IMG/VR virus record: IMGVR_UViG_3300045988_117301
Length of the DNA stretch: 41,741 nucleotides
Reading direction: 5' to 3' (one strand)
DNA from: a virus
Lineage: Duplodnaviria > Heunggongvirae > Uroviricota > Caudoviricetes
In this document: one piece after another, positions 10,980-21,043 of the stretch
How the letters are laid out: the number at the start of each line of letters is the position of its first letter
Numbering within the stretch: position 1 is the stretch's first letter
Translations under genes and position numbers: made by a program
Notes under the pieces: generated by a model
What the model saw: only the letters and a program-made list of their open reading frames with translations
Databases searched by the model: none
Told to the model about the DNA's origin: nothing

Positions 10980-11309
10980 CTATGCCACGACCTGTTCAAA
11001 ATCTGCCGTTATGGTTACCCACAGCGCCCCCACGCTTGCCGACCATTTACGACAAACCACCCTGATCGGCTTCCAGTCATAAGGTGGCGTCCACTGAAAT
11101 GCGCGGACGCCACCGTGCCGTTCCAGAAAGGCTTTCAAAGATGGGTGTTCACATTTACGAACACGTATCGTCACGCTGTAAGTCGACAACTGGTTATTCA
11201 GTCCCGCCGCACGACGCTGTTCATAACCATCGCCCAGCTTCACTGTCACCACTTTCGGCTCTGATACCACATTCATATCCGGGCGCACTTTCCAGTGAAA
11301 CGTCTCCAT
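10980..11309 (-). CDS. M: Minor tail protein M
   Basis: 109 aa, lambda gpM-like; position between H and L. Confidence 0.9.
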   Translation of the reverse strand: METFHWKVRPDMNVVSEPKVVTVKLGDGYEQRRAAGLNNQLSTYSVTIRVRKCEHPSLKAFLERHGGVRAFQWTPPYDWKPIRVVCRKWSASVGALWVTITADFEQVVA

Positions 11310-14300
11310 TACCGATATGCTCCACTTAACCGACCACCATCACGGGCCTGCTGTTGCATAAAGTCCGCTGCCGCTTTTTTCCCAAGGTCATAAACCACCT
11401 TCAGGGCAGCCGGACCTATCTGCCCGTTCGTGCCATCGTTATTGATCTCGATGTTGTACTGCGGGGCAAACATCGCCATACCTGAACCACCAATATCCGC
11501 CACAACCCCCAGCTTACCGTCAGCACCACGACGCAGTGGCAGAATGGCTTCAGGTCCAGCTTCCCCCATCACACCCGCGCCTTTTGCAAAAGCAAAAAAC
11601 GTCGGACGGTTAACCACCGTGCCACTGTAACGACTCAAATCAGCAGACTGATAAATCCCCCCATTGGCATTCAGGGAAAGGCTGCTGAGATCAAATCCCA
11701 GTACACTGCCAATCCCTTTTATCGATTTCATCATGGTTGCCTGCGCCAGGATTTTCGCCATATCTGACAGCACAGAAGAGGTGAAGGATTTGAAATTGAG
11801 TTTGCCGGTAGTGACAAAAGTTGCCAGGCCATTTCCCATGTTGCTGAAGGCTGACGAGAACACCTGTTCTGCTGTTCCTGCCGTATTATCTGCATCCACG
11901 GTAAAATCCTGAAATGCACGCAGGACTCCGTTTTTCCAGTTACCCTGAGCAATTTCAAGCTGTTGCCAGTAACGGCGATTCTCATTCAGTTGTCGGTTCA
12001 GGCTCTCCGTCAGCGCCTGCTCGGCCTTTCTGTAGTCATCCGTGTTATATGTCCCTTTCTGCTCACTATCCCGCCTCAACTGCTCCAGCTGTTGCTGGTA
12101 TTTCTGGCGAAGACTCAGTTGTACCTGATATCGCTGCCGCTGCTGATCACCCATACCCACCGTGGCGATATCCTGGTCATGTTGCTGACGCTGAGCGCGC
12201 TCTTCTTCAGCCAGTTGACTGGTCAGCTGAATTGTTTTTTTCTTCAGATCGTTGAGTGCCGTCTGTTTCTGAAGCTCCTGCTGTTTTACATCCAGCAGCG
12301 TCAGTGCCTGAATCAGTTCATCTTTACGGGCCAGCACACTCTTTTCATCTGCCGTCAGTTTTTTCCCGTCCAGATCGCTGATGCGCTGCTGCAGAGCCAG
12401 AAGCTGTTTATGCGCTTCTGTCATCCTGTCAGTGGCAATGCCTGCTGACTGTCTTGCAGCAGCAATCTGTCCTTCCACCTGTGCCTGTTGCTGGCTGTAC
12501 TGCAGCAATAACCGGGTGGCCTCATCATTACGGGTTTCGCGTGTTTTTTTCTTACCGGATGCCAGGGCTTTCTCGTAACGTTCATTTTCACGTTGTATCG
12601 CCGCATCCCTGACAGCCTGATCGGCGTACTGCATGGCATTAATACGCGCAATTTCACGCTGATGTCGTGCAGCTTCCGTTTCATTCATCCGATTCAGTGC
12701 AGCATTTTCAGCATTACGGCGTTTCTGTTGCTCCTGATAATTCCGCTCTGCCTGCTCTTTTGCATCCTGCAAATCCTTCTGGCGTTTTTTCTCCTGAAGA
12801 TCGTTAAGACGCTGCTGATCGTATTCAACCTGAGAAGATGATGCCGTCCAGGGGAGTCTTTTCGCCCGCGACACTTTCTCCTGCAAAGTGGCAATCTGCG
12901 CATCCAGCGAATCTTCACGACCAATATTCATGGCCGCATCCCAGAAACGACTCCATAAATCAGACAGATACTTCAGCGTACTGCCCAGCGCATTGAGGTT
13001 ATTATCAATATCCGCAGTACGTCGACCGGTTTCCTCTGCCAGTGCAGACATGGCTATCCGTGCCGCATCACTGGACCGCCCCTGTTCCCCAAGGACGCGT
13101 ATCTGCTCAAGCTGAGTGGCAGTAAGAAAATGCAGCTCATTGTCCAGAGCCTTCGCGGCATTTACAGGATCATCCTTCAGCCGCTTAAACTGACTTATGG
13201 TATCGCTGACCGACTGGCCAACCGATCGCTCCATCTGTGCGGCAGCTCTCGCCACCATACTGATATCGTTTCCACGAAATGCACCACTCCCCACCACCTG
13301 AGCCAGCGCACCGACTGCAGCATGTTGCGTGATACCATTCCCGGAAATAGCACGACTGAGCGTCCACAGCTGCCCGGCAGTGACTCCGGCATAATGCCCC
13401 GTCAGCGACAGCTGGCGGTTAAATTCTTCCCCCTCCTTCTGACCGTCATACCAGGCTTTACCCAGACCATAGACAGCCGCGGCAATACCACCAATAACCC
13501 CGCCAAGCATCATGCCTTTCGGTGACATCAGTGTGTCTATCCACCCGGCACGGTTAGCCAGCGTTATTCCGGATCCCCTCAGCGCACCTAAATTTCCGCG
13601 GGCCAGTTCACCTATCAGAACGCCTATCTCCTGACGGGCCGCTGCACTTTTCAGACCCAGCGAATGCGTGGCTTTTCCTGCCTGCTCCATTTTGCGGATA
13701 TACACTTCTGCAGCACTGCTTACCCCCAGCTGGGCAGCCCTGGCACGAAGCAACTCAGAAGAAGAAAGATTCTGGCGGGTTGCCTGCTCTTTAAGCTGAC
13801 GGATAAACGCCACTTTCTGTCGGGTAGCCTCTTCCTCAGCCTGTGTAAGAACACGGGTTTTCGCCGTAACCTCAGAAATCAGCGCCAGATAATCCTGCTG
13901 ACCAATCCCGCCACTGTTTCTGGCCTGTCGGATCTGCTGCTGAATACGCTGTAATTCCTGCAGCCCCGCACTGGCCTGTTTCACACTGTCAATCTGACGA
14001 TAAAACGCGGCAGCCGCTTTATCCTGAGCCTCCGCCAGAGCCATGGCCTGCGCCTGTTCCTCGCGTATTTTCTGGCTCAGTGCCTCCATACGCTGGCGGG
14101 TTTTCTCCACCTCGCGGGCCATGCGTTCATGAGCCTGTGCGTTCTTCTCCACCGTCTGCGCATGGACGGATGCGGCTGTTGCAGCCGAAGACGCCGCCTG
14201 CGTTGTCTGCCGGGCGGCCTGAGTCTGACGCTCCATAAAACGCTGCATACGGGCAGAAGACCGTTCTGCATCGCTGGCTGCACCATTCAGAAGGTTTTTG

Positions 14301-14374
14301 ATACGGGGAATTTCATTTTTAAACTCTGCCGCATCAATCCCCAAATCAATGACCAGGTTAGCTATCTGGTCCAT
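11309..14374 (-). CDS. H: Tail tape measure protein H
   Basis: About 1020 aa, coiled-coil rich; C-terminus INNDGTNGQIGPAALKVVYDLGKK...DGGRLSGAYR matches lambda gpH C-terminus as recalled; start set at ATG 14374 (Shine-Dalgarno GGAGG 8 nt upstream) rather than the track's TTG at 14404. Confidence 0.9.
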   Translation of the reverse strand: MDQIANLVIDLGIDAAEFKNEIPRIKNLLNGAASDAERSSARMQRFMERQTQAARQTTQAASSAATAASVHAQTVEKNAQAHERMAREVEKTRQRMEALSQKIREEQAQAMALAEAQDKAAAAFYRQIDSVKQASAGLQELQRIQQQIRQARNSGGIGQQDYLALISEVTAKTRVLTQAEEEATRQKVAFIRQLKEQATRQNLSSSELLRARAAQLGVSSAAEVYIRKMEQAGKATHSLGLKSAAARQEIGVLIGELARGNLGALRGSGITLANRAGWIDTLMSPKGMMLGGVIGGIAAAVYGLGKAWYDGQKEGEEFNRQLSLTGHYAGVTAGQLWTLSRAISGNGITQHAAVGALAQVVGSGAFRGNDISMVARAAAQMERSVGQSVSDTISQFKRLKDDPVNAAKALDNELHFLTATQLEQIRVLGEQGRSSDAARIAMSALAEETGRRTADIDNNLNALGSTLKYLSDLWSRFWDAAMNIGREDSLDAQIATLQEKVSRAKRLPWTASSSQVEYDQQRLNDLQEKKRQKDLQDAKEQAERNYQEQQKRRNAENAALNRMNETEAARHQREIARINAMQYADQAVRDAAIQRENERYEKALASGKKKTRETRNDEATRLLLQYSQQQAQVEGQIAAARQSAGIATDRMTEAHKQLLALQQRISDLDGKKLTADEKSVLARKDELIQALTLLDVKQQELQKQTALNDLKKKTIQLTSQLAEEERAQRQQHDQDIATVGMGDQQRQRYQVQLSLRQKYQQQLEQLRRDSEQKGTYNTDDYRKAEQALTESLNRQLNENRRYWQQLEIAQGNWKNGVLRAFQDFTVDADNTAGTAEQVFSSAFSNMGNGLATFVTTGKLNFKSFTSSVLSDMAKILAQATMMKSIKGIGSVLGFDLSSLSLNANGGIYQSADLSRYSGTVVNRPTFFAFAKGAGVMGEAGPEAILPLRRGADGKLGVVADIGGSGMAMFAPQYNIEINNDGTNGQIGPAALKVVYDLGKKAAADFMQQQARDGGRLSGAYR

Positions 14375-14675
14375 AACGCACACCTCCGGAAATACCTTCC
14401 CCAAGATGCATCAGTTCTTCGTCCGTTCGCTCCGGTATCCCGTTCTCTTCCGGTAAAAGGCTGAAATCAGCCACCGCAGCATCACTGCTGCCGGACACCA
14501 TTCTCACGATCAATGCCTTCAGCGAGGCAAACTGCGCATCCATCCACACATCACTGAAGCTCTGCATCCGGAAATAATCGCCCCACTCACCAAGCTCAGT
14601 GGCCGACATTTCCGACAGCATCCGCCGCCAGTCTGCCCGCCGGAACTCCCGGGCAAGCCGCATGACAAACTGCAT
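14358..14675 (-). CDS. T: Tail assembly chaperone T segment (expressed as G-T fusion by -1 frameshift)
   Basis: ORF in the -1 frame relative to G, open upstream into the G 3' end; lambda G/T arrangement. Confidence 0.7.
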   Translation of the reverse strand: MQFVMRLAREFRRADWRRMLSEMSATELGEWGDYFRMQSFSDVWMDAQFASLKALIVRMVSGSSDAAVADFSLLPEENGIPERTDEELMHLGEGISGGVRYGPDS

Positions 14676-14683
14676 TTCCCGCG

Positions 14684-15070
14684 TCAGGACTTTTCCGGCG
14701 TCAGCACCTCATGCTCCAAATCCCCGGCATTATCAATGGCCCCCATACCGCTCAGCGACAGAACCATCTCCGCCCCCGCACCCAGGGCATCATACGACCA
14801 TGTTGTAATAACGGATGCGTAAAGCGTCTCAACATCCTGAGACTGTTCCGCATTCCACAGTGAGCGGGAAACCAGCCAGGCATTGATATCCATCCCCATC
14901 CGCAGAAAAGCAATCTGTCGTTCAGCCTCCGGCAGTTCTCCCTCCCCGGCATCAAACTTTGCCGTTCGCTGCTGAACAAACGTCAGATATTCAATTCTCT
15001 GCAGCCCGGACAGCTCACTGAGCACCACGGACTGTTTTTCATAATTAAACGTGTCCTGTTTCAGAAACAT
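14684..15070 (-). CDS. G: Tail assembly chaperone G
   Basis: Starts MFLKQDTF... like lambda gpG (MFLKTESFE...); Shine-Dalgarno AGGTGGAG upstream of tandem ATGs at 15073 and 15070. Confidence 0.85.
   Translation of the reverse strand: MFLKQDTFNYEKQSVVLSELSGLQRIEYLTFVQQRTAKFDAGEGELPEAERQIAFLRMGMDINAWLVSRSLWNAEQSQDVETLYASVITTWSYDALGAGAEMVLSLSGMGAIDNAGDLEHEVLTPEKS
14688..14699 (-). other. Candidate -1 programmed frameshift site for G-T (CCGGAAAAG; G frame ..CCG GAA AAG TCC TGA)
   Basis: A-AAG slippery context a few codons before the G stop; the -1 frame is open across the site into T. Confidence 0.45.
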
Positions 15071-15086
15071 CATGTTCTCCACCTGT

Positions 15087-15110
15087 AAAAAAGCCCCGAA
15101 TAACCGGGGC
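15087..15110 (-). terminator. Stem-loop/terminator between V and G
   Basis: Minus strand GCCCCG-gttatt-CGGGGC followed by a T-run (plus-strand A-run 15087-15092). Confidence 0.45.
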
Positions 15111-15130
15111 AAATGATGAGTATCGTCCTG

Positions 15131-15874
15131 TTAACCTGCTGCGCTGACAGTCACCGCAGCCACAGCCACAAAATTCCCGTCAGCGGTCATGCCCACAATG
15201 CTGACACTGCCCTGCTTCACGCCTTTCACCGTGGCCACAAGCCCGTTCAGGGTCACCGTGGCAGTCTGTGGATCTGTCGAATGCACACTGATCGCTTTGT
15301 CACTGGCTCCGTCAGGTTTTACTGTAAAGGTCAGCGTGGTGGTTGCTCCCACTTTTACACTGGCAGATGCCGGTGCCACCGTCAGCCCGGTAACGCTCAC
15401 TGTTTCAGTGCCTTCCTCTGCCAGATACGGACGCCCCACACCGCTGATTTTCACTGTGCGGGTCATCACGTCTTTTGAGGCAATGGTTTTACCCAGTGAA
15501 CTCAGCCAGCCACGGAAAACATCAACAGTACCGTTGGGATATTTGATACGAAACGCGCAGACTTCACCGGAGTCGAACAACTGAACCAGTTTTTTCTGCC
15601 CGCTGTCACCCGGACGCCAGGCCAGCGTCGCCGAAGTATCACCAACGGATTTCTGCCCCTGGGTTGTCGTTTTCCAGTCTGCATCTTCATCATCGAGATA
15701 AGTGTCATCTTCTGCATCAGCGGTCATTTCGCCAGGTTGCAGATCCTTCACCATCGCAAGACGCAGCCAGTCAGTGTCCGACAAAGGGTTCGCAAACGCA
15801 TCGCCGTTGCCGGTATACATCCAGAACGTCGTCCCCGCACCTTTCGTCTTTGCCAGTGGATTTGGTGTGGTCAT
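15131..15874 (-). CDS. V: Major tail protein V
   Basis: Start at ATG 15874 with Shine-Dalgarno AAGGAGG; MTTPNPLAKTKGAGTTFWMYTGNGDAFANPLSD...LDDEDADW... matches lambda gpV as recalled; C-terminal Ig-like domain. Confidence 0.9.
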   Translation of the reverse strand: MTTPNPLAKTKGAGTTFWMYTGNGDAFANPLSDTDWLRLAMVKDLQPGEMTADAEDDTYLDDEDADWKTTTQGQKSVGDTSATLAWRPGDSGQKKLVQLFDSGEVCAFRIKYPNGTVDVFRGWLSSLGKTIASKDVMTRTVKISGVGRPYLAEEGTETVSVTGLTVAPASASVKVGATTTLTFTVKPDGASDKAISVHSTDPQTATVTLNGLVATVKGVKQGSVSIVGMTADGNFVAVAAVTVSAAG

Positions 15875-17562: not shown

Positions 17563-19521
17563 TTACGCCGTACATTTCACCAGACCGCGGTGATCAACTG
17601 GCGCGACACCGGCGTCAATACGCACTTTCGTTGTCACGCCATCCACACTGAAGCCCTCCATCTGATCAATATATGGCGTATCCACACCGTTGAGATAAGC
17701 CACTTCAATCGTATCGGAGCCTTTTGACGCAGCCAGGTAGAAGGTGGTCTGGCTGTTATCATCAAGACGAGGCTCTGCAATAACGGTCGCAAAATCTTTC
17801 ACCGGGTTAATAATACCGGCGTTAATGTCAGCCCCCTTGACACTTGAGGAGCGAATGACCTGGTTAGCAACAGACTCCATCGCCGTCGGTACCAGTACGA
17901 ACGCAGGACGAATATTCAGATGACGCTCCCCCTCTTTCTGAACGCGCATCAACTGGCGGGCTTTATCCAGCGATGCCACGTCCATTGCAGCGCTCTCCAG
18001 TACGTTTGCATGTTTCGCTTTATCGAACAGACTTACATTATCTGTGGAGATTTTCGGGTTAGACGTCAGAATGGCATAAACCAGATCGGCAATAGTGGAT
18101 TTCGCCGCACGGCCCAGTTTCATCGGGACATCGGTCAGCATATTCAGATCATCATTGATAATGGCCTGACGGGTGATACTGAACAGCTCGCCATAGGTCG
18201 CCAGTGCAATAGTGGCCTGTTTATCTCCGGTGGTGACGTATTTATATTCCGCCCCTTCACGCACCTGACGCAGAGCACTGAAGCCCCCCATACCCACACG
18301 ATGGGCAATTTTAAAATCAGACAACTGACCTTTCCGCGTCCACTGTTCATAGGTTTCAGGAGCATCTTCCCAGCCCTGCAGAATGGCTTTGTTCGCAACA
18401 TCCAGCAGAATATTACCGAAGTCAGACGTACTGTGTGTGAACGCCGCACCGACCATCTGCATCGGGTTATAACTGGAAACCCCAATACCCCGTTCAGTCA
18501 GTGACATACGGGCATATTCACGCAGGGTCATCCCGTTGTAGACATTATCACGTTCGGTTTTTTCAAATCCGGCACGCGCCATCAGCGCCTGGCGGATCCC
18601 GTCCCCCACAAAATTACCGTTACCGGCATAAATATGAGCCGGTGTATTTTTATTGGATGGCGTGGACTCGCGCCCCATCTCGTTCAACAGCTTTTCGCGG
18701 GCCTGCTCCAGCGAACATTCAGGATCGGCAAGACACTGAGCCTGCAGCGTCTGATAACGCCCGCCAAACATGGCAAACAGATCATTAATACCGTTTACAC
18801 GCGCTTTTTGCTCTGCCAGTACCTGCGCACGGATACTGTTTTCATCCACCACGGGTGCTGCTGCCTGCACTGGCGTCCGGGAGGCTGCAGGTTCATCATC
18901 CTGTACGCGTGGAGCACTGTTGCGTGGCGGAGTAATCATGTTTCGAATGGATTCCGGCATCTTTTTAAATTCCTCTGTACGTTTTGACTGAATACATGCC
19001 ATTGCCTTAACGGCTGGCGTCACCTGATCAGCAAATCCATGTGCCAGACATTCGGCACCGGACATCCAGGTCTCATCCGCCAGCATGGCAGCAATTTCAT
19101 CGGTGGTTTTCCCGGTTTTCTGTGCATAAGCGGGTAACAGAACCGCCTCAACCTTATCGAGCAGGTCGGCATAGGTGCGCATGTCCTCCGCATCACCGCC
19201 CGTAAAGCCAAATGGTTTATGAATCATCATGAAGGTGTTTTCCGGCATAATGACCGGGTTTCCCACCATCGCAATGACCGACGCCATTGACGCCGCCACA
19301 CCGTCGACATAAACGGTAATGGACGCACCATGTGTTTTCAGCGCATTAAAAATGGCGATGCCTTCAAAGACATCGCCACCCGGTGAATTGATATGGAGAT
19401 TAATGTGGGTGATATCGCCCAGTGCATTCAGATCACTGATAAACTGCTTCGCTGTAACACCCCAGAAACCAATCTCGTCATAAATATAAATATCCGCGTC
19501 ACTCTGGTGACCAGCCTGCAT
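17563..19521 (-). CDS. Prohead protease (ClpP/S14-like) fused to major capsid protein
   Basis: N-terminal region INLHINSPGGDVFEGIAIFNALK...VDGVAASMASVIAMVG (ClpP-like Ser motif) then a large capsid domain; start chosen at ATG 19521 just after the portal stop (19535). Confidence 0.85.
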   Translation of the reverse strand: MQAGHQSDADIYIYDEIGFWGVTAKQFISDLNALGDITHINLHINSPGGDVFEGIAIFNALKTHGASITVYVDGVAASMASVIAMVGNPVIMPENTFMMIHKPFGFTGGDAEDMRTYADLLDKVEAVLLPAYAQKTGKTTDEIAAMLADETWMSGAECLAHGFADQVTPAVKAMACIQSKRTEEFKKMPESIRNMITPPRNSAPRVQDDEPAASRTPVQAAAPVVDENSIRAQVLAEQKARVNGINDLFAMFGGRYQTLQAQCLADPECSLEQAREKLLNEMGRESTPSNKNTPAHIYAGNGNFVGDGIRQALMARAGFEKTERDNVYNGMTLREYARMSLTERGIGVSSYNPMQMVGAAFTHSTSDFGNILLDVANKAILQGWEDAPETYEQWTRKGQLSDFKIAHRVGMGGFSALRQVREGAEYKYVTTGDKQATIALATYGELFSITRQAIINDDLNMLTDVPMKLGRAAKSTIADLVYAILTSNPKISTDNVSLFDKAKHANVLESAAMDVASLDKARQLMRVQKEGERHLNIRPAFVLVPTAMESVANQVIRSSSVKGADINAGIINPVKDFATVIAEPRLDDNSQTTFYLAASKGSDTIEVAYLNGVDTPYIDQMEGFSVDGVTTKVRIDAGVAPVDHRGLVKCTA

Positions 19522-19534
19522 CCTGAACCAGGAA

Positions 19535-21043
19535 TTATTCTTCGGACTGGTCGTCGGTGTGCTGCGGCTCCTGTCGTTTCGTTGCGGCACTGCTGCCTCC
19601 TTTATCACTGGCCGGATCGGTATCAAATACCAGATCCAGCTTGCGGTTTTCATCAATTTCGGCCTTGCGCCGACGTTTGACATCATCCGGATTACGACCA
19701 CCAGCACGTACCCAGTCTGATTCTGTCGCCGCTCCACCACGAATCTGGATTTTCCAGGCCTCAGCCTCCTTAACAGGGTCAATCCACGGCATCACTGGTC
19801 CGGAATACACCGCGGTATACAGTGAAGAACGGTCAAGATCGCGGGGTAGCCTGATAACACCGGATGCCACAGCCTGTTTCAGCCAGGCACGATACATCGG
19901 GCGGGTGACGGCACCAATAAACCAGTCCTGCAGGATCAGGTAGCCATCAGTAGATTCAACCAGCTCCTGACGCTGGGCGCTGTAAGTGCCGTTATAGTTG
20001 CGCGCTGTACTGGAAAAACTCAGACGACTGCCCGCCGCCACGGCACGCAACTGACCATTACGAAAAGTTTCAAGGTTAGGATTGGGGCGATCCGACTTCA
20101 CCATTCCGATTTCTTCGCCGGGTTTCAGATCGTCGTAAATAATGCCTGGCTGAATGGTAAGCTCGCGTTCCTTATCCTTGCTGCCATTACCATCCGGTTC
20201 ATAGCTCTGCCCGTCGCCTTTGCGGATGTACATCCCCAGAGCAGCGGCGATCCTTGCTGCAGTCAGCTCATAATCTTCATAATCTTTCAGGGCACTGAGG
20301 CGGATCAGCACACCGGACAACAAAGACGTCCCGCGTATCTGGTGCAGACGGCGAACAAATTTAAGATGCAGCATTCGCTCTGCATCCACTTCTTTGGTTT
20401 CCATCTGCCGTCCGGATACGGGACGGCTTTTATACACCAGATATTTTTCGGGACGCCCCCAGTCATCAACAAACACGCCCTGATTCAGCCTGTTGCTCTC
20501 ATCACTGGTCATGGGAATAAAGTCTGGCTCGAGCGCCTCCAGCCAGAAATGAACACCGGCAGAAGGCGTCAGGCTGTTTATGCGCCCGGAAACCATCTGG
20601 GCAAACACCTCACCATCGCGCAGCCAGGTACGCAGCATCAGACGTTCCAGCATCGGACGGGTAAACTGCCCGGTGACTTCCGGGCTGACAGACCATTCAC
20701 TCCATCGGGTGCGAATCTCCGCTGCCAGATCACGGGCAATGGCCCCATTGCGTAATACCGGATGTGGCTCGACAATAATCCCGTTTTTCCCCACCACCCG
20801 TTCTTCCAGCTTGTCAAATACACCAATAACCAGATCGTGGTTGTTATCAAGGTAACGGGCCTGCTCACGTAACGACACGGCCCCGTACTGGCTTAGCTGG
20901 TCGGCAGTTCGGTTCTCCCGTCGGGCTTTGTGTGTCCGCGTCGTTTTTACGGCTTCATAAGCCTGGATCACCGCACGGGAACGCAGCCTTGCCGCTTTCC
21001 ATCCAGGTGAAAAAACGCCAATCACATCATCAAGAATTGCCAT
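19535..21043 (-). CDS. Portal protein
   Basis: About 500 aa between W-like and capsid genes; start ATG 21043 overlaps the W stop (TGATG). Confidence 0.9.
   Translation of the reverse strand: MAILDDVIGVFSPGWKAARLRSRAVIQAYEAVKTTRTHKARRENRTADQLSQYGAVSLREQARYLDNNHDLVIGVFDKLEERVVGKNGIIVEPHPVLRNGAIARDLAAEIRTRWSEWSVSPEVTGQFTRPMLERLMLRTWLRDGEVFAQMVSGRINSLTPSAGVHFWLEALEPDFIPMTSDESNRLNQGVFVDDWGRPEKYLVYKSRPVSGRQMETKEVDAERMLHLKFVRRLHQIRGTSLLSGVLIRLSALKDYEDYELTAARIAAALGMYIRKGDGQSYEPDGNGSKDKERELTIQPGIIYDDLKPGEEIGMVKSDRPNPNLETFRNGQLRAVAAGSRLSFSSTARNYNGTYSAQRQELVESTDGYLILQDWFIGAVTRPMYRAWLKQAVASGVIRLPRDLDRSSLYTAVYSGPVMPWIDPVKEAEAWKIQIRGGAATESDWVRAGGRNPDDVKRRRKAEIDENRKLDLVFDTDPASDKGGSSAATKRQEPQHTDDQSEE

Follow-up and report, generated by a model that had tools for sequence, protein, structure and literature searches.

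The tail assembly chaperone locus

The window analysed here is the whole 41,741-nt stretch of DNA of IMG/VR record IMGVR_UViG_3300045988_117301, and all features described below lie on its minus strand. A gene at 14684..15073 (-) encodes the tail assembly chaperone G, whose product matches PF06894 (Phage_TAC_2; 1.4e-40) and the equivalog profile TIGR01674 (phage_lambda_G), the latter with 185 bits against a cutoff of 74 and with profile positions 1-138 of 138 covered. G comprises 129 aa when read from the ATG at 15073 and 128 aa from the ATG at 15070, the second of which is better spaced from a GGAG Shine-Dalgarno (SD) sequence at 15080-15077. The reading frame ends at a TGA at 14686-14684, and the predicted mass of gpG is about 14 kDa. 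A T-family domain overlaps the end of G and sits in the -1 frame. The T segment that would be read after a shift (14358..14690, -) begins GTC CTG ACG, ends at a TAA at 14360-14358, and matches PF06223 (Phage_tail_T; 4.1e-15) and the equivalog profile TIGR01715 (phage_lam_T; 133 bits against a cutoff of 77).

The upstream neighbour of G is a major tail (tube) protein gene at 15131..15874 (-), a lambda V homolog with a C-terminal Ig-like domain (Pfam Phage_TTP_12, 1.2e-66; Big_2, 7.9e-12), annotated by PGAP as a CDS in an E. coli record that is 100% identical. The downstream neighbour, at 11309..14374 (-), is a tape measure protein gene of 1021 aa, a lambda H homolog with the Pfam domains TMP_2, Tape_meas_lam_C and TMP_4 and a PGAP CDS; the first 17 nt of this gene are shared with the end of T. 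G and T thus have the major tail protein gene on one side and the tape measure gene on the other, as in lambda-type G/GT pairs. Between V and G, a terminator scan revealed an intrinsic-terminator-like hairpin, GCCCCGGTTATTCGGGGC, followed by a T run (15087..15110, -), and the records of mEp460, Ayreon and N15 mark a terminator at the homologous place. This hairpin is strong and may reduce transcription of G, GT and H relative to V. An Rfam search over 14300-15200 gave no relevant match; its single hit, a sub-threshold match to anti-hemB (E = 0.19) overlapping the hairpin, was taken as chance.

Phages mEp460, cdtI, Ayreon, Tritos, phi458 and others share 98-99% identity with the region, and a prophage of E. 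coli FDAARGOS_497 matches it at 100%. The module is present in 1849 of 5426 complete E. coli genomes, and the same exact module is carried by mEp460, Ayreon, Tritos and cdtI, which are plaque-forming or inducible phages. The locus is an ordinary lambda-type tail assembly chaperone cassette of a lambdoid E. coli prophage of the mEp460/cdtI type. Elsewhere in the window, a 739-aa open frame (17563-19782, -) appears, from sequence alone, to combine ClpP-type prohead protease and major capsid protein regions in one ORF; the database protein P0069 carries ClpP-family Pfam domains.

A separate observation concerns the end of T, where the TAA at 14358-14360 (-) stops the frame four codons earlier than in relatives. 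In 83 of 86 close relatives T ends ...GPDSQPGH and has CAA at 14358-14360, and this stop occurs in none of the 86. The change leaves the amino acid of the overlapping tape measure frame unaltered (GCC to GCT) and is shared by the FDAARGOS_497 prophage. The early stop is probably harmless, since lambda T itself ends at ...GGVRYG.

A 22-nt shift window containing a single candidate site

In the zero frame the 3' end of G reads ...GAG GTG CTG ACG CCG GAA AAG TCC TGA. The last -1-frame stop upstream of T is a TGA at 14709..14711 (-), and the -1 frame is open from 14708, 12 nt before the candidate heptamer, to the TAA at 14360-14358. This stop and the stop of G together confine any shift from G into T to 22 nt (14708-14687). 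The sole shift-prone element in this interval is the A_AAG contained in G_GAA_AAG (14690..14696, -), read as CCG GAA AAG in the zero frame and GGA AAA G in the -1 frame, a heptamer annotated as slippery in phages N15 and LLS. A preliminary description of this DNA had given the same end and stop codon for G, had stated that the -1 frame is open from upstream of that end through T, and had named G-GAA-AAG as the only slippery-like sequence of the overlap; direct reading of the sequence bears out each of these statements. The range it gave for the heptamer, 14688-14699, does contain the site, the exact bounds being 14696-14690.

In-frame A_AAG occurs 39 times in the 11,543 codons of the long open frames of the window, corresponding to about 0.024 expected in any seven codons, and in-frame G_GAA_AAG was found 0 times in the same count. 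Against the canonical X_XXY_YYZ pattern, the A site conforms (AAG to AAA), but the P site does not, as the move from GAA to GGA creates a second-position mismatch, a point likewise made for GAA AAG in PMC6924986. Against the Z_ZZN tetramer or NNA_AAG hexamer pattern, the zero-frame GAA AAG conforms, with cognate re-pairing of tRNA-Lys. The site had been called non-canonical, which holds formally because GAA must re-pair with GGA; it is no oddity, being the commonest spelling in its family and already annotated in N15 and LLS.

A GT fusion built in silico across this site comprises 238 aa (about 26.9 kDa), with the junction ...EVLTPEK/VLTREMQF..., and aligns end to end, across the junction, with phrog_32165, a PHROG family of full-length GT proteins. 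Such a fusion might in principle form by another route, through transcriptional slippage on the run of four A within the site or through a shift elsewhere in the overlap. A four-A run is far below the lengths at which RNA polymerase is known to slip (reviewed in PMC5009743), and the rest of the 22-nt interval (GGTGCTGACGCC..TCC) holds no repeat permitting tRNA re-pairing, so that we consider such a route very improbable.

Four singleton proteins in a database of 5.8 billion proteins (P0001, P0002, P0003 and P0021) are in-frame G-T fusions. They arose by deletions of about 8-28 codons that removed the end of G, and in P0002, P0003 and P0021 the slip-site residues are also absent from the alignment. 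They likely represent defective prophages or assembly errors, which would make a GT-like protein alone. As they are deletion-made and are not annotated as slippage, they were given no weight as slippage products.

Conservation of the heptamer across diverged lineages

For the comparison, G/T loci were taken from phages with annotated records and from a single genome of each species, and for each locus the G stop, the -1 overlap and in-frame A_AAG were located. The heptamer lies at the same codon relative to the T domain in 16 diverged lineages, with G identity falling to about 31%, and the 80 nt downstream of it align without gaps across all 16. GGAAAAG is found in 11 lineages (the clade of the window with mEp460, Gifsy-2, Citrobacter, Atlantibacter, Phytobacter, N15, phi80, mEp043, Superficieibacter and Pluralibacter), GGGAAAG in four (lambda, E. 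albertii, Serratia and Symbiopectobacterium), and AAAAAAG in one (Stx2_95). Heptamer positions 4-7 (AAAG) are invariant in 16 of 16; the Lys codon is always AAG, whose share among the Lys codons of E. coli is only 0.24 (PMC3296357), and the codon before it ends in A in every lineage, while the flanking G codons vary freely. The -1 frame encodes Gly-Lys in every lineage with GGAAAAG or GGGAAAG, and from the heptamer onward every lineage keeps an open T frame with the conserved sequence GK[VA][LF].

A scan of IMG/VR returned close relatives alone (92-100% identity), and so attests to invariance and adds no diversity: the heptamer is unchanged in 80 of 80, and the site GCCGGAAAAGTC[C/A]TGA is kept as upstream G codons vary. 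The cassettes of Serratia and Symbiopectobacterium have the layout of the window (ACGCC, heptamer, TCN, stop) but the canonical GGGAAAG, and we therefore consider that the two spellings interconvert by a single transition in equivalent cassettes.

Two further observations were made in these comparisons. Among the lineages compared, GGAAAAG is followed by CCC, TCC or CCT, and GGGAAAG by TCT or TGT. According to PMC5009743, shifting on A_AAA_AAG is promoted when the 3' context is rich in C, and the C-rich flank after GGAAAAG could be a compensation, a correlation confounded by phylogeny and by coding in the T frame. In a scan of genome contigs, loci L038-L050 match lambda exactly in the site region and the T-frame sequence. 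These come from Kitasatospora, Oceanobacillus, Shewanella, Leeuwenhoekiella, Pseudoxanthomonas and other unrelated bacteria, on contigs that are mostly short and in several cases of low coverage, and their lambda-like G/T is almost certainly contamination of the assemblies by lambda control DNA.

The comparison also bears on how T is translated. PGAP, mEp460, PhiR55_1 and most other records of the module give T as a separate CDS from the ATG at 14673..14675 (-), with no joined CDS. Read in this way, T would be an independent 105-aa protein, and no fusion would be needed; the ATG is in frame and lies 9 nt after the G stop. However, this codon is specific to the clade, the aligned position being Leu in Gifsy-2, Citrobacter, Atlantibacter, N15, phi80 and lambda, and Val in Serratia, and no start codon for T itself is conserved among the lineages compared. 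The sole SD-like bases, GGGA, lie 2 nt before the ATG, which is poor spacing. The openness and conservation of the T frame from the heptamer on, across all lineages, also stand against a separate start, which would leave the invariance of the heptamer without a reason. Separate initiation was accordingly rejected as a conserved feature, and translation of T from its own ATG in the window appears unlikely. Because the ATG is confined to a clade and poorly spaced from SD-like bases, the separate T start is best regarded as a convenience of annotation.

Relation to known frameshift sites

The G/GT cassette and the GGAAAAG shift site are already known: the arrangement is standard, the heptamer is the commonest spelling in the family, and the site is flagged in public records. 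The GenBank record of N15 (genes 14/15) carries a misc_feature naming GGAAAAG the 'slippery sequence for -1 translational frameshift', the heptamer being identical and at the same codon, and LLS is annotated with a 'minus-one programmed translational frameshift site GGAAAAG' and a joined tail assembly chaperone CDS. The phi80 and mEp043 homologs also have an identical GGAAAAG at the same codon, with G identity of about 35% for these two. This group of N15, phi80, mEp043 and LLS differs from the window in the codon before the heptamer (GCG or GTG instead of CCG), in that G runs 5 codons past the heptamer, and in having no SD-like element upstream. In Salmonella, Gifsy-2 (STM1039 / STM1041.1n) has an identical 18-nt site, ACGCCGGAAAAGTCCTGA, in the same layout, and the label on its T segment reads 'part of G+G' frameshift hybrid protein', but G identity is 57% and there is no ATG near the T start.

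Lambda and the window have homologous domains for both G and T and the same gene order, V-G-T-H. In both, T lies in the -1 frame, that frame encodes Gly-Lys, the heptamer falls at the homologous codon, and no downstream structure is conserved. The lambda G/GT site is proven (Levin, Hendrix & Casjens 1993; Xu, Hendrix & Duda 2004, 2013, 2014; as cited in PMC5009743 and PMC3296357). The lambda heptamer, given in the preliminary description as G-GGA-AAG, is indeed G_GGA_AAG at the homologous codon, compared with G_GAA_AAG in the window; as a consequence of this difference, the P-site tRNA of the window is tRNA-Glu, with a middle-position mismatch on re-pairing. Further differences are the distance from the heptamer to the G stop (3 nt in the window, 15 nt in lambda), the identity of G to lambda gpG (about 31%), and the absence from T of the C-terminal duplication of lambda, the T-frame ORF comprising 116 aa compared with 159 aa in lambda.

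A mechanistic parallel is provided by IS1222 (G_CGA_AAG) and B. subtilis cdd (A_CGA_AAG), in which, as PMC5009743 summarises from Licznar et al. 2003, the A-site tRNA-Lys slips from AAG to AAA with the P-site tRNA lacking canonical re-pairing, as it would in the window. Their first codon is CGA, whereas that of the window is GAA, and the IS elements have strong downstream stimulators, whereas no conserved stimulator was found for the window.

Proposed frameshift mechanism

The DNA and its relatives show directly which genes are present and in what order, the 22-nt interval open to a shift, and a heptamer whose position is conserved, and from these we infer, with considerable confidence, that a -1 ribosomal slip on G_GAA_AAG yields a GT fusion beside G. 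The preliminary description had held that a -1 frameshift produces the G-T fusion, and the comparison of sequences supports this through the two equivalog assignments, the gene order, the homologous site and the lack of a conserved T start.

In the proposed mechanism, most ribosomes would read G through CCG-GAA-AAG-UCC and stop at UGA, producing gpG of about 14 kDa, and a minority would slip back by one nucleotide on G_GAA_AAG. Of the tetramers, A_AAG shifts most readily in E. coli (PMC4066793), because the sole tRNA-Lys can move from AAG to the cognate AAA. At the heptamer this single tRNA-Lys would move from AAG to the fully cognate AAA, and either tRNA-Glu would re-pair from GAA to GGA, with a G.U-type middle-position mismatch, or tRNA-Lys alone would slip, in the manner of the NNA_AAG sites used naturally in IS1222 and B. 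subtilis cdd (PMC5009743). The two-tRNA and single-tRNA routes would give the same protein: after the slip, reading would continue with GUC CUG ACG in the -1 frame to the TAA at 14360-14358, producing GT of about 27 kDa.

In lambda, G forms a coat on the tape measure protein, T brings in the tail tube protein, and the ratio of G to GT is about 30:1 (PMC5009743). By analogy, the G parts of both proteins may coat the tape measure protein, with the T domain recruiting the major tail protein, and because of this division of roles the frequency of the slip would fix the G:GT ratio.

Shift efficiency and stimulatory elements

In a reconstituted E. coli system, G_GAA_AAG is much less slippery than G_GGA_AAG; there, AUG GAA AAG was translated mainly in the zero frame and, unlike G GGA AAG, was used as an 'only one tRNA can slip' control (PMC6924986). 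In vivo, A_AAG without a stimulator gives about 0.15% shifting, barely above background, and reaches 5.6% only with the IS3 pseudoknot (PMC4066793). Our literature search found no in vivo efficiency measurement for G_GAA_AAG, queries combining GGAAAAG or 'GAA AAG' with phage tails matching an EF-G study alone, and it found neither protein-level evidence nor a published G/GT measurement for this phage group.

Tetramer and hexamer -1 sites require a stimulator, either an SD-like sequence upstream or a structure downstream, to reach percent-level efficiency. Single-sequence folds of the region downstream of the heptamer were no better than those of shuffled sequences (z = -1.1 and -0.2), and the alifold consensus of 13 lineages was negligible (-2.05 kcal/mol), with no pairs near the heptamer. 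On these grounds a downstream RNA stimulator was rejected. Upstream, the SD-like GAGGTG (14705..14710, -) lies 8 nt from the heptamer and forms a duplex with the 3' end of 16S rRNA of -9.2 kcal/mol. SD-like elements stimulate -1 shifts over a range of spacings that includes 8 nt, and GAGGTG is a possible local enhancer of frameshifting in the allele of the window. It was rejected as a feature of the family: the duplex energy at the homologous place is +0.4 kcal/mol in N15 and -1.7 kcal/mol in phi80, nothing comparable to the window, and some close relatives (sister alleles) have GAGGCG in place of GAGGTG. Owing to the poor slipping in vitro, the weakness of unstimulated A_AAG, the lack of conserved structure and the unconserved SD-like element, the efficiency of the shift may be well below the roughly 4% of lambda.

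Poor slipping in vitro could also be taken to mean that the prophage is defective and that its heptamer, once of the lambda type, has decayed from GGGAAAG to GGAAAAG with the loss of useful frameshifting; a single transition separates it from the canonical site kept by Serratia and Symbiopectobacterium in the same layout. Against this, the same heptamer is found in isolated and propagated phages, namely mEp460, Ayreon, Tritos, HannyBb, phi458, N15, phi80 and LLS, and decay would be less uniform than its retention in 80 of 80 close relatives and 11 of 16 diverged lineages. Loss of function by decay is thus very improbable, and GGAAAAG evidently suffices for viable phages such as mEp460, N15, phi80 and others.

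Discussion

The main value of this analysis lies in annotation: the joined GT product, which we consider the probable outcome of a -1 slip on G_GAA_AAG, is missing from most records of a very widespread module. A mechanistic point also emerges, in that the commonest natural G/T heptamer among the lineages sampled is the poorly slippery control of an in vitro study.

A more tentative reading, which we put forward as a possibility with the odds against it, is that G_GAA_AAG is a deliberately weaker, tunable form of the lambda site. The choice of G or A at heptamer position 3 would then set the G:GT ratio for each tail module, with local context compensating in the form of a C-rich 3' flank or, as in the allele of the window, an upstream SD-like GAGG, and tail assembly could be even more sensitive to Tus/IscS than that of lambda. 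The basis for this reading is how the two spellings are distributed across the family, together with published work on slipping in vitro and on tRNA modification. The extra sensitivity to host tRNA thiolation (Tus/IscS) is suggested by the fact that tRNA-Glu and tRNA-Lys both carry mnm5s2U34. If this reading is true, the prophages whose tail assembly could respond to the thiolation state of host tRNA are very common ones of E. coli and Salmonella.
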